Shown: positions 1,316 through 55,009, counted from the stretch's first letter. The stretch: 64,000 nucleotides of DNA from Candidatus Bruticola sp. (GCA_051874695.1 JBJEGC010000012.1:328-64327); one strand, 5' to 3'. Program-made: numbers and translations. The notes: a model not told the origin generated them from the letters alone.

Positions 1316-2407
1316 CTATTTTAAAATTATCGTGTGATCGCTCATCATAGCTGAACGTATATCTTTGGGAGAACTCTGGTCAATAGGCTTGACTATATCG
1401 TAAGCCAATCGAAGCCCAGCGTAAAGACTTATTAAAATCAGAAAAGTACCCAAAGCAAAGCCGCAGTTAGATGTAGCAATGGGGTAGAGACGATAGTCTA
1501 AAGGCAGGAAGCCTAAGAACATTGCTCCTCCCAACAGCCCGAAACTAAAACCACGTTTGTCTGGTAGAACCTTTGCTAGAGCCCAAAAAGTAAGGGGGCA
1601 GCTCATAGACAGAGTGAAAACTGCCAAACACCCGATTAAAGTCTGATCTGACCAAAAAAATAGACAGATAGAGACTATCAGAGAAAAAGACGCCGTTTTC
1701 ATAAAGCCGAATCGATCGCTGAGGAAACTGCCCATCAATTGCCCCAAGGCAACGGCCAACATTAGTGCCCAGATATAATCTTTGGGCCAAGGTGAGTCAA
1801 GTCCGCAAATCAGGTAGGATCGCACCGTCATGGAGCAGACTAACAGTAAAACGGTCAGCACAGTTAGTTTTTCAAAGCTCCAAGGTTTAAAAACCGTATT
1901 GTCTGATTGGAAGCTTGGATTTTTTCTGTACTGGAATACGGCAATGAGGGTCAGGGCAGTGAGAACAGCAATAATGGGCCAGACTGTGGACTCTGTCGGT
2001 TGTCCGCAGCCCGCTGCCGTTCCTAAGTACCACCCTAACCCCCCCATGGCCAGAAATATACTTAGCGGTAGAGATTTACTTTGGCTGTAATTGAGCACTT
2101 CTGCTCCGCTGCCCGCATAGAAAAGGGCACTCCCTAAACCAGCCAGGATGACTAAGGCCAAAGGATGCATGGCAAAGCCGCACCCTACCGCAGCCATCAG
2201 GCAGCCAAAAACGGCCAGAACGGCATTGTGGTTTAACTTATCAGCTAGAATTCCCAGCGGAGCTTGTAGCCCGAAAGCACAAAAATTGTAAATAAGAGCC
2301 AGCATCTCCCAGTTGGCAAAGTTTGGAGCTGCGTTAGCAAAATAAGCAAAAGCGCAAGCAAAGTCGAGCAGAGCATGCGCTAAAGCGTAAACTATAACCA
2401 GACTCAT
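1316..2407 (-). CDS. MFS-like polytopic membrane transporter
   Basis: About 12 predicted hydrophobic helices. GILADKLNHN resembles MFS motif A. Its start overlaps the upstream stop, indicating translational coupling. Confidence 0.6.
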   Translation of the reverse strand: MSLVIVYALAHALLDFACAFAYFANAAPNFANWEMLALIYNFCAFGLQAPLGILADKLNHNAVLAVFGCLMAAVGCGFAMHPLALVILAGLGSALFYAGSGAEVLNYSQSKSLPLSIFLAMGGLGWYLGTAAGCGQPTESTVWPIIAVLTALTLIAVFQYRKNPSFQSDNTVFKPWSFEKLTVLTVLLLVCSMTVRSYLICGLDSPWPKDYIWALMLAVALGQLMGSFLSDRFGFMKTASFSLIVSICLFFWSDQTLIGCLAVFTLSMSCPLTFWALAKVLPDKRGFSFGLLGGAMFLGFLPLDYRLYPIATSNCGFALGTFLILISLYAGLRLAYDIVKPIDQSSPKDIRSAMMSDHTIILK

Positions 2408-3883
2408 TTATTTTTTCTTACTCGGTTTTTTAAATATACTACTCAAGATGCCGTCGTTTCCGGATGAGGTGTTTTGGGATTCTTTCCCAGACGACTCCTT
2501 ATTATCCGCTGTTTCGTGAGCCTCAACCCTGGAACCGTCAGTTTCGTTAGGTTGCACTTGATCTTCCTTTTTGTATTCAAGTGTGCCGTTAACAATCATT
2601 TTTACCTGGCTCTTAGCCACTTCATGAGTAGACAACACGCACATGTGCGGAATATCATTACAGATCAGCTCCGAGACAAAACGGCGCAGCTCCGGAGTAG
2701 TAATGATAACGCTCGGATTACCTGCAGCATGAAGTTTTTCCTTGATACAGGATATAATGCGGTCTGTCAGAGTTTTGAGGTCATCGCTTGTTTCTGTACT
2801 GTTTTGTATATGCTTGAGTTTATGCAGGTCAGCTTCCAATTTATCGCCGGTTACTGCTGCCTGCAGTTCCTCGTTGGGAGTCAAATTGGACCAGCAGATT
2901 TGTCTGGCCAAGGCTAATCTGCAGCTTTCCGCCAGCTTTTCGATAACACTTTCTTTTAGGCTGATATGGTCAATCATACCGTCGCCTACAGTTTCTAAAA
3001 TGGTGACCATGTTGTTTAAAGCAACACGTTCGCGCAGCAGTGACTGTAGAACACGGCGTAAAATGCGGAGTTTTAAGCTGTCTTGAAGGAATTCATTGAC
3101 TACAATTGGATGGGTAATCTGTAAACGGGAAATTAAATTAAAGGTATCTTGCAGGCCCAGAAGTTCGGGAGCAGATTCTAGCATAACACTTTTCAGATGG
3201 GTGAGTAGTACCTGAAGTGGACTAACCAGCAGGCATCCCGACTGTTCAGCCTTCTCTCGAAGATCGGCTTCAATCCATTTGGCTTTCATGCGGTAGGTCG
3301 GTTCAATTGCTGCCCACCCTTCTAAGGCAGAAAGCTGCTCGAATGAACCTATAGCTAAGAATCTATCTAAGTAGAGCTCACCTGAGGCTATAGGGGAGTT
3401 ATGCAGTAAAATTTTGTAGCAGCAGGGATCGAGGTTTAAATTGTCCTTGATGCGCACACCAGCCGGAACTAATCCGGATTCTTTCGCTATTTCATCGCGC
3501 AGTCCCGGCATTGCTGCAACCAGAGGAGCACTGCACTGAGGATCGAGTAAAATTAACAATCTTTTGCCGAGTTCCAAAACAACAGGATCTTGATACACAT
3601 AGGGATCTATACCCGGTTCTGTGGATCCCTCAAACGACATAGTTAGCTCCCCGGCAACGTTCCAACCTTCGTTAACTAAGCGCATAAGGGCCTGTTGTAG
3701 CTCTGCATCCAGAACGCAGTTCTCACCGACATAAAGGAGGGCGTCTTCTTGGTCGCGAGTCATCTTTATGTACACTTGCTGGCCCCTCTCACTGCGTTTC
3801 CAGGGCATAAAATCGTCTTTGTAGCTCTTAAGAGAAAAGAGTTTTATTTCATTTGTTGTTTCATCTATTTGAGGAAGCGGCAT
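2408..3883 (-). CDS. FlhA/SctV-family cytoplasmic domain protein (FHIPEP C-terminal domain only, no transmembrane region)
   Basis: Colinear with FlhA residues about 350-690: LVPAGVRIKDNLNLDPCCYKILLHNSPIASGELYL matches LPPVVHIRDNMDLQPARYRILMKGVEIGSG, and LRILRRVLQSLLRERVALNNMVTILETVGD matches LHKVLQNLLAEKVPIRDMRTILETLAE. No hydrophobic segments. AGGAG lies 13 nt upstream of the ATG. Confidence 0.7.
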   Translation of the reverse strand: MPLPQIDETTNEIKLFSLKSYKDDFMPWKRSERGQQVYIKMTRDQEDALLYVGENCVLDAELQQALMRLVNEGWNVAGELTMSFEGSTEPGIDPYVYQDPVVLELGKRLLILLDPQCSAPLVAAMPGLRDEIAKESGLVPAGVRIKDNLNLDPCCYKILLHNSPIASGELYLDRFLAIGSFEQLSALEGWAAIEPTYRMKAKWIEADLREKAEQSGCLLVSPLQVLLTHLKSVMLESAPELLGLQDTFNLISRLQITHPIVVNEFLQDSLKLRILRRVLQSLLRERVALNNMVTILETVGDGMIDHISLKESVIEKLAESCRLALARQICWSNLTPNEELQAAVTGDKLEADLHKLKHIQNSTETSDDLKTLTDRIISCIKEKLHAAGNPSVIITTPELRRFVSELICNDIPHMCVLSTHEVAKSQVKMIVNGTLEYKKEDQVQPNETDGSRVEAHETADNKESSGKESQNTSSGNDGILSSIFKKPSKKK

Positions 3884-4891: not shown

Positions 4892-7800
4892 TTGCATAGG
4901 AAAAGAGAGATCCTTTCTCGAAGGTTTCACGCAATGTCTAAGTTCTACACTATCGAAGAAGTTTCTGAATTAATCAACGTTCCGGCCGACGTTATTCGTG
5001 AATGGATAACTGAAGGAAAAGCATCTGCTTCCCGTCGTGCCGGCGATGTGGTTTTGCGTCATCACGAGGTTCAGCGTCTCCTAGCCGAATATGGAGAAAA
5101 TGATGACAGCGCTAAGGAAACCGGCAACACTGATATAAAAAGCGGCTCCTTAGATTCGTCGTCTAACGGTTACATTGGCGGATCTGCTCAAAATAATGCT
5201 GACGATCCGGCCAGTTACTACGGGTATCCCAATCCAGAGCCGGAACCTGAGCCCGAGCCGGAAGAAACAGAGAAATTTAAGCCTCCGACGGCCCCCACTC
5301 CGCCTTCGGGTGTAGGTGCCTCTCCGGCTAAACTTGTTTTGAATAGCCGAGCCGTTGCCATTGTGAACAGTATTCCCGATGGTCCGATCGATGGCGACGC
5401 TACCGTTAGCATTTCTGCGCCTATTACTTTTGAAAGCTTAGTAGGAACTGCCCCGGCTCTAGATTATTCGTCTTTTTACGATCGAGAACTCGATGAGTAC
5501 GAATCACAGTTGCGCTATTTGGAAATGGAACTTCCGCTGCGTCCCAGTTCTTCTGAAAATGGTTCGGCAGCCGATCAGCGTGTTTCTACGTCGAATTTAG
5601 ACGGTAGAAATGCCAAGGGCAGTGAAGATGAATCTATTAGCGCAGCTCAACTTGAGCATGCTATCGAGCGCACGGTTGAACCTTTGGCCAGAGCTCAAGC
5701 CAGACTCATCAAGTTGTTTAACGAGTCACGTGAAGAATCGCGGCGGCCTACAGCCCTGCCTGCTCCCGGCGGCAGTGCTTCCGACAAAGCTTTGGCTCGT
5801 ATAGAAGAGAAGCTCGCTAAAATGCAGAGCAAACTGGAGACTCCTACCGAATCGAACAATAAGCCTGCCAGTCTTTTAGCAGAAAACGTAACTAACAGCT
5901 TGCGCCAAGAACTAGCCTCTTTACGAACTTTCTGCGCAGAGCGTTTCACAGATATAAATGCTAAGCCTGTTGCTCCTTCTCAGGAAATTATCGATAGTTT
6001 GAAAGAGATAAAAGCCTCTGTAGACAGGTTGGCCGCTAAGCAGGATCCTTCGTCTATCAGTGTCGGCTTGAGCAGCTTACAGAAAAAGTACGATCTGCTA
6101 ACGCAGAAATATAACAATTTACGTATTGAGCATGAGCGCATGGCCCAAGAACACTCTGCTGTTAGTGAGGCCGGAGCTGATGTCGATGATATTCTGAACC
6201 GTTTAGAGGTACTGCGGGCTCCTCTCGATGCTTACGGCCTTGAAGTTGGCGATTTTATGGAAAAAATTGTCAGTCATATCGATGAGCTGAGTACAGCTAA
6301 GCGCGATTTGGTCAGAAAATACTCCGATTTGGAAAAGAATTACAGCGAGTGTGAGGCCCGTTATGAAGCTTGTGAAGAGGAGTCGTCTGCTTTCCAAGTT
6401 TTAGTCGGCAATCTGCAGCAGGAAAACCGTACTCTCAAAGACGAGCTTGATAATTTGGAAGCTGAAAATTCTAAAGCTAAAGAAGAACTAGTCGAGTTGG
6501 AAAATTTGCGCGAAACCTGTCTCAATTTGCAGCATACGGCTAGCGGTTCCGATGAGGCTTTCACCAAACTTCAAGAAGAGTATTTGGGCTTGCAAGAACA
6601 GAATAAAGATCTGCTTAGGAAATTGCAAAGCGCCGATAACGAGCTTAAAGATACGCTTTTAAAAATGCAGGAAGGCAAATCTGACAGTGCAGCTGCGGCA
6701 GCTGCTTTGCAGTCTGAACTGAGCAGTAGAGAAGAAGCGCTGCGCGATTTTGAGGCCCGCATTGAAGAGCTTTCTATCCAGTTAGGTAAAACGATTGAAG
6801 ATTATGAGGCCTCTTCAAGTGAGCTGAATGAAATGAAGTCTCTGCTTGGAGAAGCTAAAGAAGAGGCGGAAGAGGCCCGCAGCCAGTTGGCTCAGGCAAA
6901 TGAAGCCTACAACGACCTTTCAGAGGCTTACAAACAGAAAGAAGAAGAGGCTAAAGGAGCCAAAGCGGAGCTGTTGCAGCTGCAGACAGTGGTAAGGTCT
7001 ACTCGGGCTCAGTCAGCTGAATTAGAAAATATGGCTGCTGAAGCTCACAAAGAGGCCTCGGAAGCTTTAGCTAAGCTCAAAGAAGCTGAGAATCGTTTGG
7101 AAGAGGCCGAAAAAGATTTTGAGGCTCAGCAGGTAAAAACCGAAGAAGTTGAGGCCTCCAGGGAGGAACTTCGAGAACAGCTGAGTTTAGCTCAGAGAGA
7201 GACTGAGGAACTCTTGGCTAAAGCTCAAGAAGAGAGTCAGCAGGCTTTAGAGCTTATGCAAAGTGAGCTTGAAGCAGCTAGGGCGAAAGCTGAAGCCAGT
7301 GCTATTGAACTGGCTCAGCAGATTGAAAGCATGGCAGCCAAAGATAAGGCTATCATGGAAACTTCTGCCAGGATGGAAAGTGAAAAAGTGCGCCTATTGA
7401 GACGAATTAATACGCTCCAGGCCAAAAATGAAGCTTTACAGGCAGAAATTGAAGAAAGTCACGAGTTAGGCAACAGCTACGAGTCTGCTAAAGTTGTAGA
7501 GTTGCAGGATCGTCTTGAGGCTGTTACTTTCGAACTCAATGAAACTAAAGACAAGTTAAAAGAATATGAAGAACGTGGTGCCACCGACGGTAGCGGTAGT
7601 CTGGAGCTAGAGGAAGCTTTAAACCAGCTGCAGACTTTAAAGTCTGAAAATGACGAGCTGCGTTACGAACTGTCAGTGCGCGATAATGCCGATGATTTGC
7701 ATAAGCAGTCAGCCGAGATGCTGGAAGCGATAGCTAATTTTGAAGCTGAGAATGCAGAGAAAGATCGCCTTATCGAGGAGTCGCACCAAGATCGGGCTCG

Positions 7801-7987
7801 TTTGCGCGAGGAGTTGGAGCGTGTTAAGCAGTCTCTCTTTGAGCAGCAGCAGCTTTACGAGCGTGAGCGCAAAGAGTGGTCTGAAATTTTAGCTAAGCAG
7901 GTTAAGGGAGAAGGCGTTGACACTGGAGTAGATTCTCCGCGTCGAAGTGGATTTAAACTGTTTAGAAATAGGGGTGGTTCTATTTAG
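4892..7987 (+). CDS. HTH (MerR/excisionase-type) DNA-binding domain fused to a (PE)n linker and a 750-aa coiled-coil protein
   Basis: The N-terminal FYTIEEVSELINVPADVIREWITEG...RHHEVQRLL matches the HTH_17/excisionase fold. PEPEPEPEPE follows. From about aa 250 to the end the sequence is E/K/A/L/Q-rich heptad-like, as in SMC arms or myosin tails. Likely true start: the ATG at about 4934 (MSKFYT). Confidence 0.8.
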   Translation: MHRKREILSRRFHAMSKFYTIEEVSELINVPADVIREWITEGKASASRRAGDVVLRHHEVQRLLAEYGENDDSAKETGNTDIKSGSLDSSSNGYIGGSAQNNADDPASYYGYPNPEPEPEPEPEETEKFKPPTAPTPPSGVGASPAKLVLNSRAVAIVNSIPDGPIDGDATVSISAPITFESLVGTAPALDYSSFYDRELDEYESQLRYLEMELPLRPSSSENGSAADQRVSTSNLDGRNAKGSEDESISAAQLEHAIERTVEPLARAQARLIKLFNESREESRRPTALPAPGGSASDKALARIEEKLAKMQSKLETPTESNNKPASLLAENVTNSLRQELASLRTFCAERFTDINAKPVAPSQEIIDSLKEIKASVDRLAAKQDPSSISVGLSSLQKKYDLLTQKYNNLRIEHERMAQEHSAVSEAGADVDDILNRLEVLRAPLDAYGLEVGDFMEKIVSHIDELSTAKRDLVRKYSDLEKNYSECEARYEACEEESSAFQVLVGNLQQENRTLKDELDNLEAENSKAKEELVELENLRETCLNLQHTASGSDEAFTKLQEEYLGLQEQNKDLLRKLQSADNELKDTLLKMQEGKSDSAAAAAALQSELSSREEALRDFEARIEELSIQLGKTIEDYEASSSELNEMKSLLGEAKEEAEEARSQLAQANEAYNDLSEAYKQKEEEAKGAKAELLQLQTVVRSTRAQSAELENMAAEAHKEASEALAKLKEAENRLEEAEKDFEAQQVKTEEVEASREELREQLSLAQRETEELLAKAQEESQQALELMQSELEAARAKAEASAIELAQQIESMAAKDKAIMETSARMESEKVRLLRRINTLQAKNEALQAEIEESHELGNSYESAKVVELQDRLEAVTFELNETKDKLKEYEERGATDGSGSLELEEALNQLQTLKSENDELRYELSVRDNADDLHKQSAEMLEAIANFEAENAEKDRLIEESHQDRARLREELERVKQSLFEQQQLYERERKEWSEILAKQVKGEGVDTGVDSPRRSGFKLFRNRGGSI

Positions 7988-9892: not shown

Positions 9893-11371
9893 TTAGCAAT
9901 GTGTGTGCACACGGCGATATGTTTCACAGAGCTGAGAGCTAGGAGAAGCATTAAGATATTTTTTCATATTTTTTCTAAATACGTTAAAGGTTTGTATAGC
10001 CAGTTGTGGCTGGCATGCGGCTGCATAAGCACACATTAAAATTTGAACGCACTGTTCATTGAGAGGATCAAGAGAAGCTGCCTGCGAGGCAGTTTCAATT
10101 GCTGCTGACCAATCTTTTTGGCTGTATTCATGCTTAGCTAATTCAAGTAGGGCCTGTTGTGAAATGTAGTCGAGTCTTACTCTTTTCATTTCTGCCCATT
10201 CCATAGAACATTGGCACAAAAAATGCCCCTGGCTCAGTTTCTTGATAGAAATAAGGTGTTGAAGCAGCTTTTGCGATCGATATTCTGACCAATGCTGTTC
10301 CAATACGAGCCAATCTGCTTCTATATGAAGTTTAGAATTGAGCGCTAGTGAAGCTGAACTGCGTATTATGGGTATGAAATTGGGACAGACCTGACGAAAG
10401 ATTTTTTTTATGACAGATACGGCTTTCCAAAGATTTGTCTGCCCACCGCTGTCTGGCCAAAACTCTTCAATAAGTTGATCTGCACTGAAGTCAGTATGGC
10501 TGCTTGCCAAGCGCAGAAAAAGATATTTGATTTTTTGAGTTACCCACATTTTGTCGTCAATGGGTTGACCGTTCAAGCTGATACGGCATTGACCTAAGAG
10601 GGACAACTCAAGCTTGGGGAGTTTCTGTTCAGAAGCTCCTGGCAGATCTTGGACCGATGACATGGAAGAAATTATTATTTGGCGGGCTAAAGCAAATTTT
10701 GGATGGAAGTAATTCTGCGTAAAACTGCCTTCCCAAAGCTCTTTATCTGGTAGAGCGAAATCATTATTTTGCTCCCATTTCAGGGTACGCAAAACAGCAT
10801 TAATTTCAATTTCTTGTACGGTAGGAGCATCGAGCCCGGCTTGTATGGCCAAACGTTTAGCTACTGAACTAATATGTTGGGCTGTCTTAATGACTTGGGT
10901 GGAAAGTTCACCCTTACAGAAACTACCGAGCAGAGTTTTGATAGACCACGAGTGCAAGGCCTGCAGGCGCAGATTGTACTCGCAATTTTGTCGGTAGCGA
11001 ATGTTTTGTCTTATTAAACAGAATACTACTGCTAAAAAAGTTTTCAGTTCGAAGGGTTGACGCAGACAATCTGTCGTACCCGGATGGAGGGCTCTGATCG
11101 AATCTTCCTCACTGGCATTTCTGGTTATAACCAGAACCGCCGCCTCTCTGAGATGACTTTGTACCGTTAAGACGGGCAGCAAGGCCTCGGGATTGTCAGT
11201 ACAAGTATCTAGCACAATTAGATCGAATGATTTACGCGAGGAGATCGCGACAGCGTATTCCCCCCTGGACGCAGCCGTCACCTCAAACCCTTCGTCTTGA
11301 AGAGCGCGGCTGAGCATATTTCTCAGGGAAGCGTCATCTTCAAGCACCAGGATTCGTGCTGTCTTGATCAC
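9893..11371 (-). CDS. response regulator with receiver domain, winged-helix and BTAD (SARP-like) C-terminal domain
   Basis: The N-terminal ILVLEDD...FDLIVLD is a CheY-like REC. The middle region resembles an OmpR-type winged helix (LSLLGQCRISLNGQPI...LWKA). The C-terminal ...DWSAAIETASQAASLDPLNEQCVQILMCAYAAACQPQLAIQTF is BTAD-like, as in AfsR/DnrI. Confidence 0.65.
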   Translation of the reverse strand: MIKTARILVLEDDASLRNMLSRALQDEGFEVTAASRGEYAVAISSRKSFDLIVLDTCTDNPEALLPVLTVQSHLREAAVLVITRNASEEDSIRALHPGTTDCLRQPFELKTFLAVVFCLIRQNIRYRQNCEYNLRLQALHSWSIKTLLGSFCKGELSTQVIKTAQHISSVAKRLAIQAGLDAPTVQEIEINAVLRTLKWEQNNDFALPDKELWEGSFTQNYFHPKFALARQIIISSMSSVQDLPGASEQKLPKLELSLLGQCRISLNGQPIDDKMWVTQKIKYLFLRLASSHTDFSADQLIEEFWPDSGGQTNLWKAVSVIKKIFRQVCPNFIPIIRSSASLALNSKLHIEADWLVLEQHWSEYRSQKLLQHLISIKKLSQGHFLCQCSMEWAEMKRVRLDYISQQALLELAKHEYSQKDWSAAIETASQAASLDPLNEQCVQILMCAYAAACQPQLAIQTFNVFRKNMKKYLNASPSSQLCETYRRVHTHC

Positions 11372-11502
11372 GCTTCCCTAATTAGCTATTAGAAGTAATT
11401 TTTTCCTGCTTGCATACGATGGTTAAATTTCCAATTTATTTCAGCTTCAAGTAGTATAAACAATTTGTACAGGAAACTGTTTTGTTAGGGGGAGGGAAAA
11501 GT

Positions 11503-11883
11503 ATGCCGAATTTTTTACCTATTTTGTTAGAGAAAGCTAGGACCCGCACGTTGTCACCGCGAGAATTTTCTGTGCGTTGGCACTCGATACGCCGAGGAAT
11601 CAATGAACGATGTGCTTGTGTTAGGCGTGAGTTTGAAGATATGAGGCAGCGCGCTTCCGGACGCGTGTCTAAAGGGCGGGTTGATCGTATTTTGCGAGGA
11701 GTAAGCGAAAAAGAAATTGAGTACTGGCAGTTAGTTATTTTTTGCATAGAAAATTGGTTAGAGCGCAGTGGGAGCACAGCTTATTTGTTGCAGGCTCAAG
11801 AGTCGTTCGCTATAGTAGAAAAACTTTGCAGTAAAAGGGTGAAAGCTTTGAAAGCCGTTTGGGAAGGCGAATTCATTCGTTAG
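11503..11883 (+). CDS. hypothetical protein (first gene of the pseudopilin operon)
   Basis: ATG is preceded by GGGGGAGGG, 7 nt upstream. Basic protein of 126 aa. An overlapping minus-strand ORF has no RBS. Confidence 0.4.
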   Translation: MPNFLPILLEKARTRTLSPREFSVRWHSIRRGINERCACVRREFEDMRQRASGRVSKGRVDRILRGVSEKEIEYWQLVIFCIENWLERSGSTAYLLQAQESFAIVEKLCSKRVKALKAVWEGEFIR

Positions 11884-11898
11884 CAAGCTGAGCTGTCT

Positions 11899-12525
11899 TT
11901 GAGCTATATATGCCAAATTGGGGGGTCAAAATTGAATAACCATTCTGATTCGGTTTGGAAAGTTCTCTCAACGTTGTCATTGCGCTGTTTAAATGCGCAC
12001 AAATTAGCAGAAATCAGACATACTGGTCTGACTTTGCTTAAAAAAGAACGTGGCGGCAGTGCCATCATTATGTCAATATTTATTATTACTATTATGATGA
12101 TTTTAGCCGCCACCTACCTGATGTCTCTGCAAACCGAGCGCCATTTTTCTGCAGTTCAGGAGCGCCGTCTGCAAGCCTGGTATTTAGCTGAATCGGGGCG
12201 AGATTATTTCCTCAATTACTGTAGTATTGGTTCTGCCGATACTTTATTGGCTGCACCGGGCAACACTTTAAAAGCGACGCAACCTGGTGAACATGGGGAG
12301 CTTATTTTAGCTAAAGTTTGCGTGCCAGAGTATTCTGCTAATTATTACTTTGAAATATCTTCACTTAAACCAAATGTTATTTGTGTGAGGGGAGTTGTTT
12401 ACGACACATTAAGCAGCAGTGGCCAGCCTGCCTGTTTAGAGAAAAAAATCTATTTGACTGGCAGTTTTTCAAAGGGGTGGGGAAATGCTTTCTACGATAA
12501 ATTGGCTGAGGAAAACGAAATATAA
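11899..12525 (+). CDS. minor pseudopilin-like protein (PilX_N / GspK-like hydrophobic N-segment); start uncertain
   Basis: ERGGSAIIMSIFIITIMMILAATYLMSLQTE resembles PilX/GspK N-termini (QRG-ALIV...). Annotated TTG start; alternative starts at about 11932 or 12070. Confidence 0.5.
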   Translation: MSYICQIGGSKLNNHSDSVWKVLSTLSLRCLNAHKLAEIRHTGLTLLKKERGGSAIIMSIFIITIMMILAATYLMSLQTERHFSAVQERRLQAWYLAESGRDYFLNYCSIGSADTLLAAPGNTLKATQPGEHGELILAKVCVPEYSANYYFEISSLKPNVICVRGVVYDTLSSSGQPACLEKKIYLTGSFSKGWGNAFYDKLAEENEI

Positions 12526-13162
12526 TCAGCGCGGAGTCACTATCATTGAGTTGTTGATTTGCTGCGCTTTAACGGTAACTTTTTTAGGTTTGGTAGGGCG
12601 ATTAGCTTCGGCGGCAGCTGAAAATTACAAGCATAGCGAAAAAGGAATGAGGGCCATGCGCTCGGCAGCCTTAAGTGCGGAAAACATGAGCTGCGATTTG
12701 CGTTTATGTCAGAGTATTCTATGGCCCAAGGTAAGCTCTGAAAAGTGGCTCCAAGGATATTCTGTGAAAGGTGATAGTCAGGTCGCCTTCAAGTTCATTT
12801 TTAGACAATCTCCTCCGGTAGGCGGTGCGCCATCCATAATCGGTTACCATTGGGATTCGGTCAGTCGGGAACTGACTAAATGTATCTATCGCCCTAATTT
12901 TAATCCGCAGGCGAGCAATTTGAACGACTCCGGACAGATCATTTCTCAAAAAATTTTAGCACGCGATCTGTCAGCTATTTCCATTAATTCGGTAAACTGT
13001 CGTCTGCGCGGAGGAGCACAATTTTTAGAACTGAGCTTAACTGTTTCATTTAATGAACTAGATCGGGGGCTTCGCAAACTAAATAATATTTCAACTCAGC
13101 CTCCTGAACTGTTCAAGAGTATTTATACACAGTTCGAAATCAGGGAGGGGGCGTCTTTATGA
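12485..13162 (+). CDS. type IV pilin-like / T2SS pseudopilin (prepilin N-terminal cleavage/methylation motif)
   Basis: QRG|VTIIELLICCALTVTFLGLVG is a canonical G|xTxxE prepilin leader plus hydrophobic helix. Overlaps the upstream gene. Confidence 0.65.
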   Translation: MLSTINWLRKTKYNQRGVTIIELLICCALTVTFLGLVGRLASAAAENYKHSEKGMRAMRSAALSAENMSCDLRLCQSILWPKVSSEKWLQGYSVKGDSQVAFKFIFRQSPPVGGAPSIIGYHWDSVSRELTKCIYRPNFNPQASNLNDSGQIISQKILARDLSAISINSVNCRLRGGAQFLELSLTVSFNELDRGLRKLNNISTQPPELFKSIYTQFEIREGASL

Positions 13163-14424
13163 AAAGACAAGGTCAGTTTGCTTATACGCTTATAGAGCTA
13201 ATGGTCGGTCTGTTTCTGATTTTTTCTGCTGCCAGTTGCTTATTTAGCACTTACGCTTTTGGAACTAAAGCTAATTTAGGCACCGATCGCTTCACTACAG
13301 CTATAAATTTAGGACAGGCCAAAATGGAAGAGCTGCAAAGCCGTCCCTATACATCTCTGCCTGATCGACAGCAGGGTAAATTCGCCCAACCTTACCAGAA
13401 TTACAGTTGGAGTGCCGATCTTTCGGATTTTAGTGAAGACTTCGCTTTGCTCACTCTTTACACCGGTTATAACGGGGCACCTCTATGTACTCTGCGTCGT
13501 TTGTTGGCTAAAGACTGCCCGTCTTCAATTTCTGCTCACATTTACGATAGTGAGGCGTCCTTTACCGATCGAACTTTTAGTTCTCCTTTTGGTAAATATA
13601 ATTTTTGGCTAACTCGTTCTGTCGAGCAGAAACTTGTAGGCAGTTTTCCCAAAGGAGAAATGGGAGCCATGTGCGGTTATCCCGCGCAAGGTATTGTCTG
13701 GCTGGCATATTTGCGCCAGCCTAAGCTGTGTCGGCTTATATTTGATGGCGACGGCAATCATATAGGAACTAAATTGGTTAATGTGCCTAAGCTGACTTAC
13801 GGATACGAAGCTGATATTGTCGATATGGCCGCCGATCAAATGGGGTGCTTTGTGTTTTGTGCCGATAGGGCTAATCAGTCAGTGTGGGTTCTAGATGATT
13901 CTCAGAATCAGGGACAGGTTTCATGGAGCAACGGTAGGTGTTTAACTAGTCGACTCAATCCTCTAAAAGATTTGCGATCTATTGCCTGCGATCAATATGG
14001 GACTTCTGCCTGGATCTGTGAGGGGCAGCCTCGTCGCTTGCGTCAATTCTATTGGGGCAGTTTACCCAAAAGTTTTGAGGAAAAAATCAATAATTATGCA
14101 GCTTGGGGGAGTTGTTTTGAGGTGCCTTTTTCCGGTTCTGGTCGCCTTCACAGTGTGGCCGTCAATAGTTGGGGATCGGCGGTCTATACCATCGACAACA
14201 ATTTTCTATATGGCTTGCTTTTTCAGGAGTGTAGCGGCCTTGGACAGTGGTCTAAAACACCTATGCCGTCTGAATTATGCCGTTCCGCTCCCAGAGCCCT
14301 GTGGGTCGATCCCGGCAGCAGCATAATTTATATCAATACTTTGTACGGAGGACAATGGGCTGCTAAACCACTCACTGATGGTTCTCTATCTCCGTCTTGT
14401 TTCAGCAAACTTAGTTGGAGGTAG
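13159..14424 (+). CDS. large pseudopilin-like protein with non-canonical prepilin N-terminus
   Basis: MKRQGQFAYTLIELMVGLFLIFSAAS looks like a GspI/PilV N-terminus, but with spacing G-Q-F-A-Y-T-L-I-E. ATGA-type start/stop overlap with the upstream gene. Confidence 0.55.
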   Translation: MKRQGQFAYTLIELMVGLFLIFSAASCLFSTYAFGTKANLGTDRFTTAINLGQAKMEELQSRPYTSLPDRQQGKFAQPYQNYSWSADLSDFSEDFALLTLYTGYNGAPLCTLRRLLAKDCPSSISAHIYDSEASFTDRTFSSPFGKYNFWLTRSVEQKLVGSFPKGEMGAMCGYPAQGIVWLAYLRQPKLCRLIFDGDGNHIGTKLVNVPKLTYGYEADIVDMAADQMGCFVFCADRANQSVWVLDDSQNQGQVSWSNGRCLTSRLNPLKDLRSIACDQYGTSAWICEGQPRRLRQFYWGSLPKSFEEKINNYAAWGSCFEVPFSGSGRLHSVAVNSWGSAVYTIDNNFLYGLLFQECSGLGQWSKTPMPSELCRSAPRALWVDPGSSIIYINTLYGGQWAAKPLTDGSLSPSCFSKLSWR

Positions 14425-15455
14425 TGTCTATGGAAAAAATATTTTTATATCGCCAGCTAGGTGTTATGTTAGGTTCAGGAGTTCCCATTGTTAAAGCCTT
14501 GGAGTCTGCTGCCGGGTGTTGCAAATATTATAAAGATAAGCAAGTTTGGTATGAAGCTGCCGAAGCGGTCAGTCGCGGAGAAAATCTGACTCAAGTTTGG
14601 AGTTCAAACCCTAACTATTTTGAAATGATAGAAACTGGCCTTATTAGAGCAGGGGAAGCTTCTTGTTCAGTAGCCGAAATATGTCTGTACATTTCAGAGT
14701 TTTTTTCATTTGAGCTGCATATGAAGCGGCGATTAAGGGGAGCTCTTCAGTATCCTTGTGTAGTTTGCTTCAGTTTTATTGTGCTGAGTATTATGATGTC
14801 ACTCTATATTGTACCTTCATTTTCTCCGGTATTTGCCGCTCTGACCGATTTGCCCTGGTCTACATCTGTTTTACTGCTTTTTATCAATTTGCTAAAAAGT
14901 CCGCTATTCTGGATTTTGATTGGAACTGCTATTTTAGGATTTTGGGTATTTTTTAAGTTTTACCGCCGGTTTGCTTTGGTCCGGCGCCAGTGGCAGCTGC
15001 TTGTTTTGACTACTCCGCTGCTGGGTAAAATAGTCAAAAATATTGTAACAGCTCGTTTTTGCCACACTATGTCTATGTTGGTGCGCAGTGGCCTGCCCTT
15101 AAACAATTCATTACAGATTGCCGGACTGTCTTTAGCCAACTATCCTTTGGCTGCAGCTTTAGAACTAGCTGCTGCGGAAATAGATGAAGGTTCGGAATTG
15201 AGCCAAGCGTTGCAGGCAGGAGGTTACTTTTCGTTATCATTTATAGCTGCTTTGAACGTAGGATCGGAATCAAGTTGCCTTGACTGCGTTTTTGAGCGTC
15301 TCAGCCGCTCTTATAATGAGCAGGTAAAGTTAGATATTGAGAAATTGTCAGTATATATAGAGCCTGTAATGATAGCCGTTATGGGAGTCGCCACAGCCGC
15401 AGTACTTTTCGCTTTATTTGCACCTCTTTATGAGTACATTAATAGGCTGACTTAA
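14415..15455 (+). CDS. type II secretion / type IV pilus platform protein GspF/PilC family
   Basis: Two T2SSF-type repeats (FLYRQLGVMLGSGVPIVKALE...; ...TARFCHTMSMLVRSGLPLNNSLQIAG...) and three hydrophobic helices. 10-nt overlap with the upstream gene. Confidence 0.8.
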   Translation: MEVVSMEKIFLYRQLGVMLGSGVPIVKALESAAGCCKYYKDKQVWYEAAEAVSRGENLTQVWSSNPNYFEMIETGLIRAGEASCSVAEICLYISEFFSFELHMKRRLRGALQYPCVVCFSFIVLSIMMSLYIVPSFSPVFAALTDLPWSTSVLLLFINLLKSPLFWILIGTAILGFWVFFKFYRRFALVRRQWQLLVLTTPLLGKIVKNIVTARFCHTMSMLVRSGLPLNNSLQIAGLSLANYPLAAALELAAAEIDEGSELSQALQAGGYFSLSFIAALNVGSESSCLDCVFERLSRSYNEQVKLDIEKLSVYIEPVMIAVMGVATAAVLFALFAPLYEYINRLT

Positions 15456-15481
15456 AGATAATTTTAAGGGGGAGGGAATGG

Positions 15482-16531
15482 ATGTCAGATAAACCTTTCA
15501 TTATTCTTTGCGATCAAGATTCTGCTATCGGAGACTTACTTTTTTGCACTTTGCAAAAATTAGCGGGGAGAATAAGCCGTCTTAGAGGGCGCTCTTCACT
15601 TCTGGCGGCTGAGTTGTTAGAGCGGCGTGCAGACTTGTTAATAGTAAACGGCACTGCTAAGGTCGGCGAATTGCTGCATATTATGCGTTGCTGTAAGGCA
15701 AAATATCCCGATCAAAAACAAATTTTTATTACTGCTGTTTTTGAAGGCTATGAAGAAGAGCTGAAAGCAACTCAATTGGACGGTTTAATTTTTAAACCGT
15801 TTAAGATTAACCAACTAAATGATATGGTAGCAGGTTTGCTTCCTAGCCTTAATAGAGCAAATCAGCAGGTCTCTGTCGATGTTATTAGCCGAATTGAACA
15901 ATTGAGCAAAATAAAAATAGCGGTTGTCATGCAATACTTGAAGTCTTGGTTAACCACACTACAAACTGTTTGGCACAACTTCAGTCTTAGAGAACTTGAA
16001 AATGAACGCCTTATAACTTTAAAAACTGTTTATCGTTTTTGTTTGTCCAAGTTTTCTAGCTACCGGTTTGCTTTAAAATTGTGGCATTATTTAGAGTTTT
16101 TGGAGCGTCATTATCTGCTTATCAAGGGAGGAGCCGATGTCGAGCGGGAGGCGCTAAAGTTCCATTACACTATGTTAAAGAGCAAACTGGAGAGAGGAAT
16201 GCAGGGCAAGTTTATCTCTATGGGTGAAGGAGACGGATTCGGGCCTAAGCTCGATCTTGTCCAATTCGGTCAGTTTTATGAGCGCTTGCGCCGTCAAGAA
16301 GTTAGCTTCGGCTGCTTTCGTTTAGCCGCTCAGGCTAGGCTGGTGCGATGGGCTTGTGATCGGCCTCCTATGAATGAGCTAAAATATTGGGCTCAAGGAC
16401 GTCGCTGTTTAGAGCGTCACAGACATTTATCCTACAAAGCCAGTGTAGCTGAAGCCGAAGCTGAGCTGAAGTTTTTGGCTGCTGCGAGTGAGCCGGGGCT
16501 ACAGGAGGTATTCAGCCAAGTTTGGGGATAA
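15482..16531 (+). CDS. receiver-like (pseudo-receiver) domain protein of unknown function
   Basis: The N-terminus IILCDQD...ADLLIVNG...IFITA...LIFKPF follows the CheY fold pattern, but has N where the phospho-acceptor Asp is expected. GGGGGAGGG RBS. C-terminal domain unknown. Confidence 0.5.
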   Translation: MSDKPFIILCDQDSAIGDLLFCTLQKLAGRISRLRGRSSLLAAELLERRADLLIVNGTAKVGELLHIMRCCKAKYPDQKQIFITAVFEGYEEELKATQLDGLIFKPFKINQLNDMVAGLLPSLNRANQQVSVDVISRIEQLSKIKIAVVMQYLKSWLTTLQTVWHNFSLRELENERLITLKTVYRFCLSKFSSYRFALKLWHYLEFLERHYLLIKGGADVEREALKFHYTMLKSKLERGMQGKFISMGEGDGFGPKLDLVQFGQFYERLRRQEVSFGCFRLAAQARLVRWACDRPPMNELKYWAQGRRCLERHRHLSYKASVAEAEAELKFLAAASEPGLQEVFSQVWG

Positions 16532-16642: not shown

Positions 16643-17023
16643 TTAGGCGCCGCCAAATATTTTTCCCAAACGTTTAAAAACGCCGGGCCGTTCTTTCATT
16701 GAAGTTAGTTGTTCTTTACTCACGAACACACCACCGCAATTAGCGCATTTAGGCAACGACATGCCTAATTCTTCTATATTGCTCATGGTCAGATCGAAAC
16801 CACAGCTAGGACATTTCATATAATGAATATTAGCCGTAGACTCTGTTCCTGGTCCATTTTGTTCTGTCTGGGATTTTTGCGCTTCTTGTAGCTTTTTATT
16901 GCGCATCTGCTCCAGCAGCCTTCTTTCGTGTTCTTCCACGCCCTTGATTTTCAGGCCGCTGCTTTTTCCAGCCATTTGTTCCTGAGTTTTACCCTTAGAG
17001 GCAAAATGGTCACTACTACCCAT
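16643..17023 (-). CDS. zinc-ribbon domain protein
   Basis: C-terminal CPSCG...x17...CANCGG four-Cys ribbon. The N-terminus is charged and K/E/Q-rich. Confidence 0.5.
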   Translation of the reverse strand: MGSSDHFASKGKTQEQMAGKSSGLKIKGVEEHERRLLEQMRNKKLQEAQKSQTEQNGPGTESTANIHYMKCPSCGFDLTMSNIEELGMSLPKCANCGGVFVSKEQLTSMKERPGVFKRLGKIFGGA

Positions 17024-34920: not shown

Positions 34921-36135
34921 ATGGCTAAGTTTCCTCTTCTAGACGACAATTTCCCTCGTATAATTCCCTCTTTCAGACAGTTGGTGAAGATAATGTCTGA
35001 ATGTGTTGACGGTGGAGTGAGTTTAGGCTGCACCGCTTTTGAATTCCGCCAGTGTGATATTGCTCTTGGGACGGCTTTGGGCAATTTTATGGAAGTTTTG
35101 CGGTTGAAGGAACTTCCTCCTGAGAGAAATGAAGCAATTAATGAGATAGTGCTTCTTTTTACTCGCATGAGTTCGGAAATGGCTAAATTAGAGACTGCAT
35201 TGAGCATGGATGCTACGGCGGCCGCTGTTAATTGTGTAGCTAACATATACGAACACTTAAAAGACTTAGAAGAATTAAATATGGACCTGAAGGCTGCTGT
35301 AGGTGATAGCCATATTTATTCTGAAGTACCGGTTGTTGACAGTTTGTTGCGTGCGGGCAACTTTGTGCTGGAAACTAACGGCGCAGAGTGGGATGCTTTG
35401 AGTGCCCGTCTGGAAGCACTTATACCTCAGTGGAATGAAATAGTTTCCGGCAGCGGTCTGCCGGAGGAATTGATTCGCCACGACCATGCTTTGGAACGCC
35501 TGGTTGAAGTGCTTAACGAAAGAAATTTGGAGGCGCTTCCTGATGTTTTGGAAGAGGTCAAGTCTAGTGGTGAAGATTTGGTCAATTTTCAGGACAGCCA
35601 GATAGACGTCGAAAATACTTCCGTAGTGCTCTGCCCTTATTGCGGCAAGCCCATGTTGGGAGGAAGTAAAAAGTGCTTCTCTTGTGGAGCTAGGATGCCC
35701 GAAGAGTTTGAACGGGGCGGTTCTTCCGACAAAGAAACAGATAAGGGCGAGGCCATCAGTGGAATGCCTGAGTATGTACAACGCATTTTCGATGTTGCCC
35801 AAGAACTTCCCAACAATCCTAAAATGATACGTCCTTTCAAGAGAGCTGTGGGTGAGCTGCGCCGTCGTGTTGCCGATGCCAGTTCGCGCATCAATAAAAT
35901 GTCTTCTTCTAAGTTAAAAACTACTCCGGAAGAACGTGAAAATATTGACGGTATTATCGACCTCTCCAATACTTGTATAGACAATTTCTCCAAGGCAGTA
36001 GAACTGTTAGAGGAATTTGAACCTCCTGTTGATCGATTCCATATGCAGTGCGCCTTAGAGGTTATGGTTGAAGCTGTAAAGGAGATGCGCGGCATAGGTG
36101 GCTTGGCCCAAAAATATCGCAATTCGAAGAAATAA
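34921..36135 (+). CDS. hypothetical protein, paralog A of tandem pair with central zinc ribbon
   Basis: Aligns along its full length with the next gene: FPLLDDNFPRIIPSFRQLV / LPKLDDSFPKLIPHLRSFV, NLEALPDVLEEV / NLEELPAALESF, CPYCG...CFSCG / CPKCG...CPKCG. No signal peptide or TM helix. Confidence 0.6.
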   Translation: MAKFPLLDDNFPRIIPSFRQLVKIMSECVDGGVSLGCTAFEFRQCDIALGTALGNFMEVLRLKELPPERNEAINEIVLLFTRMSSEMAKLETALSMDATAAAVNCVANIYEHLKDLEELNMDLKAAVGDSHIYSEVPVVDSLLRAGNFVLETNGAEWDALSARLEALIPQWNEIVSGSGLPEELIRHDHALERLVEVLNERNLEALPDVLEEVKSSGEDLVNFQDSQIDVENTSVVLCPYCGKPMLGGSKKCFSCGARMPEEFERGGSSDKETDKGEAISGMPEYVQRIFDVAQELPNNPKMIRPFKRAVGELRRRVADASSRINKMSSSKLKTTPEERENIDGIIDLSNTCIDNFSKAVELLEEFEPPVDRFHMQCALEVMVEAVKEMRGIGGLAQKYRNSKK

Positions 36136-44288: not shown

Positions 44289-44337
44289 AAAACGTTATCT
44301 CTCCTGGAATATTTTCCCAAAATCAGGTGACCGCAGA

Positions 44338-51538: not shown

Positions 51539-51600
51539 AAAATTTCCTATAATGAAAGATCACAATCGCTGACAGAATTAAGATAACTATTTATAAGCTG

Positions 51601-52632: not shown

Positions 52633-52747
52633 ATGGTTTTTCTTTGCCTGACTGTGAATTAAGATTTATAAGTAAATTTGGCCCAAGCGGAAGCGGACAC
52701 AAAGTTTACACCGCAGAGAACTGTTCACCACCGATTGTATCTTGAAC

Positions 52748-54763: not shown

Positions 54764-55009
54764 TCTGCGTGTGCTGCAAATTGATCGCCCAAACTGCGAG
54801 CTCAGCCGTTTCGCTCCTTTACCCTTAGAAGGCGGTTGCCTCGACGGAAGATCAACTCCCCTTTCCTAAATTTGACAAATTTAATTTTTACAATTTATGC
54901 AATTTTCCGCTCAGTTCAAAGCCGATTTGCGGTATATACGAAATCTAAAAGACAATATAGTGCATACCACAATCGGTCTAAACCACCTTACTTCCAAATT
55001 TAGGTGATG

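Follow-up and report, generated by a model that had tools for sequence, protein, structure and literature searches.

The locus and its gene content

The DNA studied here comes from Candidatus Bruticola, a gut-associated, uncultured member of the class Xenobia (Vulcanimicrobiota/Eremiobacterota), and was analysed as a single window, the whole stretch of 64,000 nucleotides. Six genes on the same strand, overlapping or tightly packed, occupy positions 11503-16531 of this window, and all six open reading frames lie where an earlier, sequence-only reading had placed them. That reading proposed a pseudopilin/GspF operon, which proves to be a real operon of the type-4-filament (T4F) class, with class III signal peptides and a genuine platform protein. 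Altogether, the products of the cassette include the membrane platform of a type IV pilus or type II secretion-like filament, three of its tip-type subunits and a degenerate receiver protein. The features of the locus are as follows:

9893..11371, minus strand: divergent REC-BTAD regulator gene (Pfam)
11372..11502, no strand: intergenic, putative promoter region common to the regulator and gene 1 (four-species alignment)
11503..11883, plus strand: gene 1, 126-aa cytoplasmic protein (ORF, ATG start, ribosome-binding site)
11932..12525, plus strand: gene 2, GspK/PilX/ComGG-type minor pilin without Glu5 (HMM matches, motif, gene call)
12485..13162, plus strand: gene 3, 225-aa prepilin, canonical class III signal peptide (N_methyl, invariant residues)
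13159..14424, plus strand: gene 4, 421-aa GspI/XpsI-like pilin with a predicted beta-propeller (AlphaFold2, Foldseek, HMM)
14430..15455, plus strand: gene 5, 341-aa platform protein of the GspF/PilC/ComGB class (T2SSF and GspF models)
15482..16531, plus strand: gene 6, 349-aa aspartate-less receiver with a helical domain (family profile, AlphaFold2)

The cassette is kept as a unit in eight GTDB species-level genomes and also, with different flanks, in a further and more distant lineage (P0011). In the window, the operon is limited by the divergent regulator gene on one side and by a convergent zinc-ribbon gene on the other and, therefore, its missing parts do not lie just outside it in the same operon.

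The neighbouring gene had been described as a divergent REC-SARP regulator, and Pfam indeed finds in it both a receiver (Response_reg, E 1.2e-12), with the acceptor Asp kept (LIVLD), and a BTAD domain (2.7e-9), while no OmpR-type wHTH was detected by Pfam in residues 230-380. This REC-BTAD (SARP-type) protein, whose gene occupies this divergent place at every Xenobiaceae-type locus and is absent from it in the P0011 lineage, is a candidate transcriptional regulator of the cassette. An alignment of four species reveals two conserved blocks in the region between both genes, TTTCCTGC at 11402-11409 and AAATTTCCAnTTTATTTCAG at 11425-11444, the latter with TTTCC/TTTCA spaced 11 nt, followed downstream by a TATAAA and then by a strong ribosome-binding site. 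From their sequence and position, these blocks may act as promoter elements. No Rfam match was found in the intergenic region 11372..11502.

The platform protein and the three pilins

The most readily recognized member of the cassette is the product of gene 5, which is 100% identical to an NCBI entry named 'type II secretion system F family protein [Candidatus Bruticola sp.]'. Known T4F platform proteins have a duplicated T2SSF motif and three transmembrane segments (PMC10191384). In gene 5, T2SSF is matched in two repeats (E 1.3e-43), GspF (TIGR02120) is matched with E 3e-53, residues 6-336 align with residues 83-412 of PilC from M. xanthus, and hydrophobic segments occur at 104-122, 134-173 and 306-324. 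The best score is obtained for GspF (181.5 bits, cut-off 424), followed by PilC (153) and ComGB (102, cut-off 240), and the ComGB model is covered from end to end (3-332 of 332, E 3.4e-29). The platform is thus as real as first proposed, and its shortness reflects only the loss of the T2SSF_N extension of about 65 aa (PF28597, detected in outgroup proteins only), with both repeats and the hydrophobic membrane segments being kept.

Genes 2 to 4 had been read as a PilX/GspK-like minor pilin, a canonical prepilin with a G|VTIIE site and a 421-aa pseudopilin-like protein, and the three descriptions stand with some refinement. The reading frame of gene 2 opens at 11899 and runs to 12525, and its start is probably the TTG at 11932, which matches the 197-aa product called on a Logan contig. 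The N-terminus is PilX_N/GspK-like, with a cleavage motif (ERGG|SAIIM) lacking Glu5 that is kept in frame in three orthologues (L005, L007 and L009), upstream of their called ATG. The protein in the window matches PilX_N with E 0.028 and GspK with E 0.0013, and the L005 orthologue reaches E 2.5e-6 for GspK. Gene 3 has the site RG|VTIIE, with Gly-1 and Glu+5 invariant in six orthologues, and a Pfam N_methyl match (E 0.003). Its matches, which comprise pilins and the 'Verru_Chthon cassette protein C', are N-terminal only. It may be either a J-type minor pilin, a call that draws on the N-terminus only, or a polymerising subunit.

The product of gene 4 carries the site QFA|YTLIE, with Tyr+1, Leu+3 and Glu+5 invariant across 11 sequences, and the distant L007 orthologue has a canonical RG|YSLLE. 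Its layout consists of a pilin module (aa 1-117), a linker and a predicted beta-propeller (aa ~168-418, DNA 13660-14412). An AlphaFold2 model of moderate confidence (pLDDT 70.6, pTM 0.67), built from a shallow alignment of 11 sequences, shows a pilin helix and a small sheet followed by the propeller, for which the top Foldseek matches are 7-bladed propellers, lactonases and WD40 proteins, with no PilY1 structure among the best 50. The family is formed by just 12 clusters and has 104 invariant columns, many of them within the propeller, and the P0134 orthologue matches XpsI (3.5e-11) and GspI (2.9e-4). The pilin first proposed is borne out, and the model narrows it to what is predicted to be an I-type pilin with a grafted beta-propeller.

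As a whole, HMM classing places gene 2 with GspK and gene 4 with XpsI/GspI and gives no GspJ signal for gene 3, and every score lies far below the curated equivalog cut-offs (GspF 181 versus 424, GspK 18-27 versus 130, XpsI 43 versus 150). The Pfam N_methyl scores of the cassette pilins (17.5 and 13.9) are likewise under the gathering threshold of 21.2. The set of three pilins resembles the K, (J?) and I subunits that make up a tip complex for initiation, with the gene 2 product as a candidate for its cap.

Two cytoplasmic proteins

The last gene had been read as a CheY fold without the phospho-acceptor Asp. The gene 6 product has no match in Pfam; its family profile, however, matches solved response regulators (E 8.8e-10) and phmmer reaches true REC proteins. 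A moderate-confidence AlphaFold2 model from a shallow alignment of seven sequences (pLDDT 79) superposes on Spo0F/CheY at TM 0.75-0.8, with a receiver at aa 1-125 followed by a long helix and a helical bundle (aa 132-349), a domain for which no homologues were detected. When mapped by HMMER onto solved receivers, Asn56 occupies the position of the phospho-acceptor Asp and Gln12 that of the second acidic residue, with Asp11, Thr84 and Lys105 kept among the five active-site residues, so that the phosphorylatable set of PF00072 (DD, D, T/S, K) is incomplete. A pseudo-receiver is a receiver fold missing at least one of the five residues, the aspartate-less type being the one without the acceptor Asp (PMC12632262), and gene 6 in this genome fits both definitions. 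Among seven aligned sequences, nevertheless, the acceptor position is Asn in four, Glu in one and Asp in two, and the Asp-less state is therefore specific to some lineages; the original claim holds for this genome but does not extend to the family as a whole, where distant orthologues keep the Asp. Nothing points to the suggested link of this protein to c-di-GMP: PilZ, GGDEF and EAL domains, a conserved RxxxR motif and a riboswitch are all absent.

Gene 1, the first cassette gene in every case, starts with an ATG preceded by the ribosome-binding site GGGGGAGGG. Its product is cytoplasmic and probably helical, with no hydrophobic segment and no matches in Pfam, NCBIfam or PDB. Across five orthologues with 38-88% identity, Cys37 and Cys81 are invariant. 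Any roles given below to genes 1 and 6 are guesses from position and fold.

Missing components and alternative readings

Every characterised T4F has pilins, a prepilin peptidase, an extension ATPase and a platform (PMC10191384), and of this core set only pilins and platform are present at the locus. When the long, non-nested ORFs in the window were scanned with Pfam, no T2SSE ATPase, secretin or A24 peptidase appeared. Neither the 64-kb window nor about 14 kb beyond its ends, where a complete ATPase-secretin set would have undone the sequence-only reading, yielded a GspE/PilB ATPase, a prepilin peptidase or a secretin. A six-frame motif scan of the window revealed no GspE-type Walker A and just two prepilin motifs with Glu5, those of genes 3 and 4. 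The window also lacks GspD, the major pseudopilin GspG and GspC/L/M, there is no polytopic unannotated ORF near the cassette, and none of the related loci has a GspE-type ATPase motif within 10 kb. The absence of ATPase, peptidase and secretin in cis is thus confirmed as a feature kept across the lineage and not an accident of assembly. With the motor ATPase, the peptidase and an obvious main filament subunit all missing, the cassette probably depends on genes elsewhere in the genome. At least the peptidase must act in trans, since the cleavage motifs are conserved and the window has no A24 domain. Sharing of a prepilin peptidase is an established mechanism, and supply of the ATPase in trans is reasonably inferred; to our knowledge, sharing of one ATPase by two platforms is not an established mechanism.

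The same absence could be read in another way, as the mark of a self-contained device in which platform and pilins form a short stub that shows the propeller at the surface or within the periplasm, with no GspE-type polymerisation, genes 1 and 6 perhaps standing in for the missing cytoplasmic parts. In favour of this idea, the six genes of the cassette move together, their flanks differ in the P0011 lineage and an ATPase is never present within 10 kb; the platform has lost T2SSF_N, and the two cassette-specific cytoplasmic proteins are without relatives outside the lineage. However, NTPase motifs are absent from gene 1 and gene 6 alike, an extension ATPase occurs in every characterised T4F (PMC10191384), and the ComGB model covers the gene 5 platform without any such extension. 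The pilins, moreover, need a peptidase that is also missing, so dependence in trans would persist anyway. We regard such ATPase independence as unlikely. ComGB platforms, for their part, work with ComGA.

A Com-like DNA-uptake pseudopilus module, in line with the earlier label 'competence-like', seems to us equally improbable. Com pili are minimal T4F (PMC10191384), the gene 5 platform has the length of ComGB and matches its model in full, and there are weak matches to ComGE, ComGG and ComGF. On the contrary, the ComGB score is under its cut-off and under those of GspF and PilC, GspK and XpsI/GspI are better matches for the pilins, the gene order is unlike comG and the phylum is diderm. The ComG matches that would speak for the label are weak, and a search of the window for DNA-uptake genes, ComGA, ComC, ComEA and ComEC among them, revealed none.

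The missing core genes, the scores under curated cut-offs and the degenerate receiver site might also suggest the decaying remnant of a former T2SS/T4P locus, without present function. Against this, the six reading frames are intact at every locus examined, with conserved lengths, and the cleavage motifs and many propeller residues are invariant. In the cassette, pN is 0.05-0.2 versus a pS of 0.6-0.7, with synonymous sites near saturation, and dN/dS is 0.04-0.11 (about 0.04-0.06 for gene 1 and about 0.11 for gene 3), equal to that of mutL; purifying selection on the cassette is as strong as on mutL. Intact frames and purifying selection largely refute the remnant, which we consider very improbable. 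Least credible of all is an unrelated membrane-protein operon with ordinary signal or anchor sequences and a chance GspF homologue, because, despite the sub-threshold N_methyl scores, a G/A|[VY][TS][LI][IL]E motif has Glu+5 invariant across families (and -1 and +5 invariant in genes 3 and 4), GspK and XpsI/GspI are matched, the gene 4 model begins with a long helix of pilin type and continues into a sheet, and three pilin genes are grouped with a platform gene. The pilin-like N-termini first noted are class III signal peptides and not ordinary ones.

A probable lineage-specific filament sub-module

The explanation that we favour, with fair though far from full confidence, is that the cassette is a lineage-specific sub-module of a T4F (T2SS/T4P-class) machine in gut-associated Xenobia, that is, a tip complex with a grafted propeller and a dedicated platform, relying on other loci for its peptidase and ATPase and probably also for a major pilin. 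The sole member of the phylum in culture is a diderm that bears pili and has pilMDTC genes (PMC9758169). In such a sub-module, the prepilins would be cut by a prepilin peptidase encoded elsewhere, and the three pilins would form an initiating tip complex on the platform, with the Glu5-less gene 2 subunit at the apex and the propeller displayed as a binding module. Tip complexes capped by a Glu5-less subunit, as well as pilins with grafted adhesive modules, do exist (PMC10191384, PMC8179133). A GspE/PilB-family ATPase from elsewhere would engage the two cytoplasmic domains of the platform and extend a filament whose subunit is either the gene 3 product or a major pilin from another locus. Gene 6, and possibly gene 1, might serve on the cytoplasmic side as a switch or adaptor that works without phosphorylation, for instance by recruiting a shared ATPase to a second platform or gating it there, and transcription would be under the divergent REC-BTAD regulator.

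Comparison with known systems

One close parallel is the GspI-GspJ-GspK tip of the T2SS with its GspF platform (PulF/EpsF/XcpS). The cassette platform matches GspF best, and adjoining its gene are three tip-type pilins, including a GspK-like one without Glu5 and a GspI/XpsI-like one. In contrast with the T2SS, GspD, E, G, H, C, L, M and O are missing in cis, the genes run in the opposite order (K-?-I-F), the I subunit bears a propeller of ~250 aa, the K-like subunit is roughly half as large as GspK, scores are under the equivalog cut-offs, the platform lacks T2SSF_N and two unrelated cytoplasmic genes are added. ComGB of the Com pilus resembles the platform in its ~340 aa, the lack of an N-terminal extension and the full coverage of the model, but differs in a score below its cut-off and below those of GspF and PilC, in the lack of an adjacent comGA and in the diderm character of the host phylum.

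The Verru_Chthon cassette (TIGR02596-02600), which we take to be gene cassettes of pilin-like proteins in Verrucomicrobia, is another lineage-specific prepilin-type cassette, and gene 3 orthologues weakly match its protein C (E 0.003), although the match spans only the N-terminal 60 residues and scores 16.8 against a cut-off of 256.5. We know of no platform gene in that cassette. For gene 6, both FrzS and TadZ/CpaE of Tad pili offer an Asp-less receiver fold followed by a helical region and a genetic tie to a pilus machine. By sequence, however, only the REC fold is common to them, the C-terminal helical bundle of ~220 aa is neither the coiled coil of FrzS nor the MinD-like ATPase of TadZ, and some gene 6 family members still have the Asp. 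FrzS of Myxococcus is a phosphorylation-independent recruiter of a T4P activator (PMC1974792, PMC9811614).

With regard to the propeller, two systems can be compared. The tip adhesin PilY1/PilC of T4aP, a separate non-pilin protein of ~1000 aa, has a propeller as its C-terminal domain, whereas that of the cassette would be covalently part of a pilin. In both cases, a beta-propeller would stand at the filament tip by way of minor pilins, which in T4aP prime assembly (PMC10191384). The T4P of Streptococcus sanguinis comprises an I-like PilA as well as PilB and PilC with grafted vWA/lectin modules (PMC8179133, PMC9934059, PMC10191384), all encoded at a pil locus that is complete, with ATPase, platform and peptidase included. 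Despite these in cis components, the lack of sequence similarity and a cassette module that is predicted to be a beta-propeller on the I-like subunit itself, both systems have three tip pilins in place of HIJK, as well as a bulky binding domain joined to a pilin module, and we take the modular minor pilins of S. sanguinis as the closest functional counterpart of gene 4.

The cassette and its setting

Candidatus Bruticola belongs to the class Xenobia of the Vulcanimicrobiota (= Eremiobacterota/WPS-2; NCBI taxonomy), and no mention of pili or secretion was found in publications on Xenobia or Bruticola. The window has the even composition of ordinary chromosome, and its genes include acetate kinase, mutL, dnaG, rpoD and the start of the dcw cluster. 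The operon-like block of six genes that a sequence-only reading had proposed here was confirmed as six co-oriented ORFs, overlapping or closely spaced, which are bordered by a divergent regulator gene upstream and a convergent zinc-ribbon gene downstream:

9893-11371, divergent: REC-BTAD regulator
11372-11502: intergenic region
11503-16531 (+): six-gene cassette, encoding in order a 126-aa cytoplasmic protein (gene 1), a GspK/PilX-like pilin (gene 2), a 225-aa prepilin (gene 3), a 421-aa predicted propeller-bearing pilin (gene 4), a platform protein (gene 5) and a 349-aa protein with a predicted receiver fold and helical domain (gene 6)
16643-17023 (-): 126-aa zinc-ribbon protein (Zn_ribbon_TFIIB, E 2.9e-7), convergent with the cassette

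Genes 2 and 3 overlap by 41 nt and genes 3 and 4 by 4 nt, with gaps of 5 nt between genes 4 and 5 and of 26 nt between genes 5 and 6. A promoter and terminator scan gave a result no better than shuffled sequence. At the position of the zinc-ribbon gene, the loci of Bruticola and of UBP9-type genomes (Xenobia MAGs from human and baboon gut) have a gene of 126-128 aa, and none was called in L007, the locus of a goat-rumen relative.

A platform protein with three pilins

The gene 5 product is unambiguously a platform protein. T2SSF matches it twice (E 1.3e-43), the GspF, PilC and ComGB models score 3e-53, 1e-44 and 3e-29, all below the equivalog cut-offs, residues 6-336 of the family profile align to residues 83-412 of Myxococcus PilC, and hydrophobic segments occur at the sites expected for the membrane-spanning segments of a platform. 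An NCBI protein from a Candidatus Bruticola sp. MAG has the identical sequence (100%), and the platform clade comprises 12 clusters among 5.8 billion proteins. Its earlier description as a short GspF holds as far as the T2SSF_N domain (PF28597; ~65 residues) goes, which is missing here and carried by almost all of the ~400-aa relatives among the matches listed; nothing else has been lost, as both T2SSF matches and the hydrophobic segments are kept.

Outside the family, the best platform match among the matches listed is P0013, a 408-aa protein encoded on a Desulfobulbus sp. contig (L026 8001-9227; DRKI01000186.1), whose gene has no ATPase gene upstream either and follows unrelated neighbours. 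Unlike P0013, P0016 lies within a classical pilB-pilT-pilC-pilD-pilin cluster. Platform genes that lack an adjoining ATPase gene may be commoner than assumed. The Xenobia-type platform, at 57% identity as in UBP9 genomes, also occurs in a MAG from human gut (L021, CAAGRW010000080.1) that bears the label 'Candidatus Riflebacteria bacterium', probably through taxonomic misassignment.

Class III signal peptides are found in gene 3 (RG|VTIIE) and gene 4 (QFA|YTLIE). Glu at +5 is invariant in both families, as is Gly at -1 in that of gene 3, and the most divergent orthologue of gene 4 has a canonical RG|YSLLE. Gene 2 carries a conserved R-G-G|S/A/M-x-[IL]-[IV]-[MF] motif with no Glu5, which in other species lies in frame upstream of the ATG picked by gene callers, and it matches GspK/PilX_N/ComGG-type models; its product is predicted to be a Glu5-less K/X-type subunit. 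Because only its N-terminus resembles anything, the gene 3 product may be either a J-type subunit or a polymerising pilin. When compared with the PDB, the profiles of genes 1, 2 and 3 gave nothing significant except a pilin N-terminus.

In the AlphaFold model of the gene 4 product (pLDDT 70.6; shallow alignment of 11 sequences), residues 1-117 form two helices, the N-terminal one long, and a sheet of four strands; a poorly predicted linker and a beta-propeller (168-418) follow. The top Foldseek matches are of a generic kind, namely 7-bladed propellers, lactonases and WD40 proteins. The pilin module of the orthologues matches XpsI (3.5e-11), GspI (2.9e-4) and ComGE (6e-5), with a weak sequence match to solved GspI in the corresponding region. 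This fold, together with the XpsI and GspI matches, identifies a predicted minor pilin of I type onto which a propeller is grafted. The family forms 12 clusters among 5.8 billion proteins; an exact-sequence look-up of the 421-aa protein gave no match, nor did Pfam for the propeller alone. That the N-termini of genes 2-4 are ordinary signal peptides is excluded by motif conservation, HMM matches and fold, which bear out their pilin-like character.

Parts missing in cis

Among the long non-nested ORFs of the window, Pfam detected no T2SSE ATPase, secretin or A24 peptidase. In a six-frame motif scan of the window, GspE-type Walker A motifs were absent and the only Glu5 prepilin motifs were those of genes 3 and 4. 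None of the neighbouring unannotated ORFs is polytopic. Past one window end the dcw cluster continues, whereas on the other side an acetate kinase gene and a glycosyltransferase family 9 gene are the last before the contig end, and look-ups beyond both ends gave no filament genes. As scans and look-ups were all empty, the initial statement that ATPase, peptidase and secretin are absent within 10 kb holds over much more than that distance, and the flanks looked up contain no full machine to which the cassette could belong. Related loci agree, none having a GspE-type Walker A within 10 kb of the cassette.

Type 4 filaments (T4F) always comprise pilins, a peptidase, an ATPase and a platform (review by Pelicic, PMC10191384). 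Two of these four, pilins and platform, are present in cis, and ATPase and peptidase are not. Moreover, the cassette fails every curated equivalog threshold and therefore should not be filed as T2SS, T4aP or Com.

Conservation and selection

The six genes keep their order and similar lengths in several lineages, the platform being 76% identical in a second Bruticola species, 57-59% in UBP9/UBA-type MAGs from human and baboon gut and 45% in the goat-rumen MAG. All these loci have the REC-BTAD gene upstream and a deacetylase-mutL region downstream. With each GTDB species represented by one genome, a scan recovered the cassette in 8 species, all from gut or rumen. In the more distant lineage of P0011, whose platform is 43% identical, the six genes lie between anmK and an M23 peptidase gene, with no REC-BTAD gene directly upstream, so that the conserved unit is the cassette and not its neighbourhood.

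Between species, non-synonymous differences amount to 0.05-0.2 per site and synonymous ones to 0.6-0.7, near saturation; the resulting dN/dS of 0.04-0.11, approximate because dS is saturated, is the same as for mutL. The six genes are functional, and these selection data exclude the reading of the cassette as a decaying remnant.

A receiver without its aspartate, and the regulator

Although Pfam gives no match for gene 6, three lines of evidence support the CheY-like N-terminus recognised earlier: phmmer reaches true REC-REC proteins, the family profile matches solved receivers (E 8.8e-10), and the AlphaFold model (pLDDT 79; shallow alignment of 7 sequences) superposes on Spo0F/CheY with TM 0.75-0.8. 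The HMMER alignment places Asn56 at the phospho-acceptor Asp and Gln12 at the second acidic residue, as the claim of a missing acceptor had anticipated, with Thr84 and Lys105-Pro106 retained. Under published definitions (PMC12632262), the gene 6 product is a predicted pseudo-receiver of the aspartate-less type. Its C-terminal 220 residues are confidently predicted as a helical bundle preceded by a ~57-residue helix, with no Pfam or PDB match; Foldseek matches of the whole are due to the REC domain only. A word-index homology search returned two proteins, and exhaustive HMMER among 1.84 billion representatives six family representatives, then only generic receivers. Gene 1, the other cytoplasmic protein, has no relatives outside the cassette.

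In the gene 6 family, the more distant members have Asp at the acceptor position, and the others have Asn or Glu there. In goat-rumen L007, the single locus examined for the context of the Asp form, a 900-aa histidine kinase gene adjoins the REC-BTAD gene (L007 1160-6224) and the gene 6 orthologue (11060-12046) keeps its acceptor (LVLWDL), whereas Bruticola and UBP9-type genomes have Asn at this site and no kinase gene beside the regulator. This co-occurrence of kinase and Asp, and their joint absence, suggests that gene 6 was once phosphorylatable and has since lost phosphorylation control; a receiver may have become a pseudo-receiver upon kinase loss. The c-di-GMP role also put forward for this protein was dropped because its RxxxR motif (RLRGR) is not conserved among orthologues; nor does Rfam find a riboswitch in the window or the leader region.

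The REC-BTAD regulator keeps its acceptor Asp, and its middle part has no Pfam match. In the intergenic region, the blocks TTTCCTGC and AAATTTCCAnTTTATTTCAG are conserved across four species, and AAATTTCCAnTTTATTTCAG contains two TTTC(C/A) elements 11 nt apart, upstream of TATAAA. These blocks are a possible binding site of the divergent regulator, which probably controls the operon.

Other features of the window

1316-2407 (-): 363-aa weak-MFS membrane protein, directly after the 491-aa gene
2408-3883 (-): 491-aa protein without a membrane segment, corresponding solely to the C-terminal, cytoplasmic half of FlhA/SctV (E 7e-63; FHIPEP profile positions 326-655 of 657)
4892-7987 (+): 1031-aa protein, N-terminal MerR-type HTH and no further recognised domain
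34921-36135 and 36188-37384 (+): tandem genes of 404 and 398 aa, internal zinc-ribbon match at the same position
42474-44841 (-): Hsp70-like 604-aa protein paired with a DUF2760 protein
47197-56512 (-): four clustered radical-SAM genes, two of them with B12-binding domains, a 671-aa protein (DegT aminotransferase matched in two stretches) and an FAD amine-oxidase-like gene

The 491-aa protein is a stand-alone export-gate cytoplasmic domain; the sole isolate of the phylum has no flagella (PMC9758169). The region of the 1031-aa gene shows a strong purine skew (GC skew 0.20, AT skew 0.15 at 6-8 kb) and is conserved upstream of the cassette locus in relatives. The tandem genes are probably paralogues, otherwise unannotated, and the radical-SAM cluster may encode a pathway that modifies sugars or lipids.

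Proposed mechanism and alternatives

From gene content, motifs, folds, conservation and the absence of parts in cis, we infer a mechanism that depends on components supplied in trans. With cleavage motifs under selection and no peptidase gene near, a prepilin peptidase must act in trans on the prepilins. The same reasoning applies to the motor: every known T4F has an extension ATPase, so the platform would most likely engage a GspE/PilB-type ATPase encoded elsewhere. Since the phylum's sole cultured member, a diderm, has type IV pili and pilMDTC genes (PMC9758169), a machine of the lineage able to lend motor, peptidase, major pilin and secretin is plausible. The K-like, gene 3 and I-propeller subunits would form an initiating tip complex on their dedicated platform and display the propeller as a binding module, with the filament body made of the gene 3 protein or of a major pilin from elsewhere. 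Operon control would be driven by the divergent REC-BTAD regulator. The aspartate-less receiver protein could serve as an adaptor or gate on the cytoplasmic side, independent of phosphorylation, a role for which TadZ, with its atypical receiver domain, is in principle a second analogue. The first, likewise in principle, is FrzS (PMC1974792, PMC9811614).

Among the alternatives, a Com-like DNA-uptake module is possible: the weak ComG scores are consistent with it, but the window yielded no DNA-uptake genes. It is unlikely that Xenobia have no dedicated GspE/PilB-family partner for this platform, or none at all, which would make the cassette a new T4F derivative in either of two versions. In one, gene 6 and gene 1 may be a new adaptor through which a second, N-terminally truncated platform borrows another machine's motor; in the other, platform and tip pilins may display the propeller adhesin with no ATPase-driven polymerisation. 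A self-contained, ATPase-free device we regard as quite improbable.

Comparison with known filament systems

The cassette is functionally a T4F module. A platform gene commonly adjoins its ATPase gene, as in pilB-pilT-pilC-pilD clusters; what distinguishes the cassette is a platform gene retained with tip-type pilins and without its ATPase, the loss of T2SSF_N from this platform, the predicted fusion of an I-type pilin to a beta-propeller, and two cytoplasmic proteins specific to the cassette, including a receiver with an active site degenerate in most lineages. A platform gene that evolution has long retained beside nothing more than tip-type pilins and two cytoplasmic proteins specific to the lineage lets two questions be tested in nature: how platforms find their motors, and whether two platforms can share a single motor. 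Moreover, the propeller pilin, from a never-cultured gut lineage, is a candidate adhesin for binding to a host or a partner.

In known systems, filament assembly begins at a minor-pilin tip complex with a Glu5-less subunit as cap (Pelicic, PMC10191384), a logic that the trio of genes 2-4 fits. In Streptococcus sanguinis, an I-like pilin and two modular pilins with adhesive modules take the place of HIJK (PMC10191384, PMC8179133), and among such modular pilins the predicted I-type pilin-propeller fusion would represent a new kind of grafted module.
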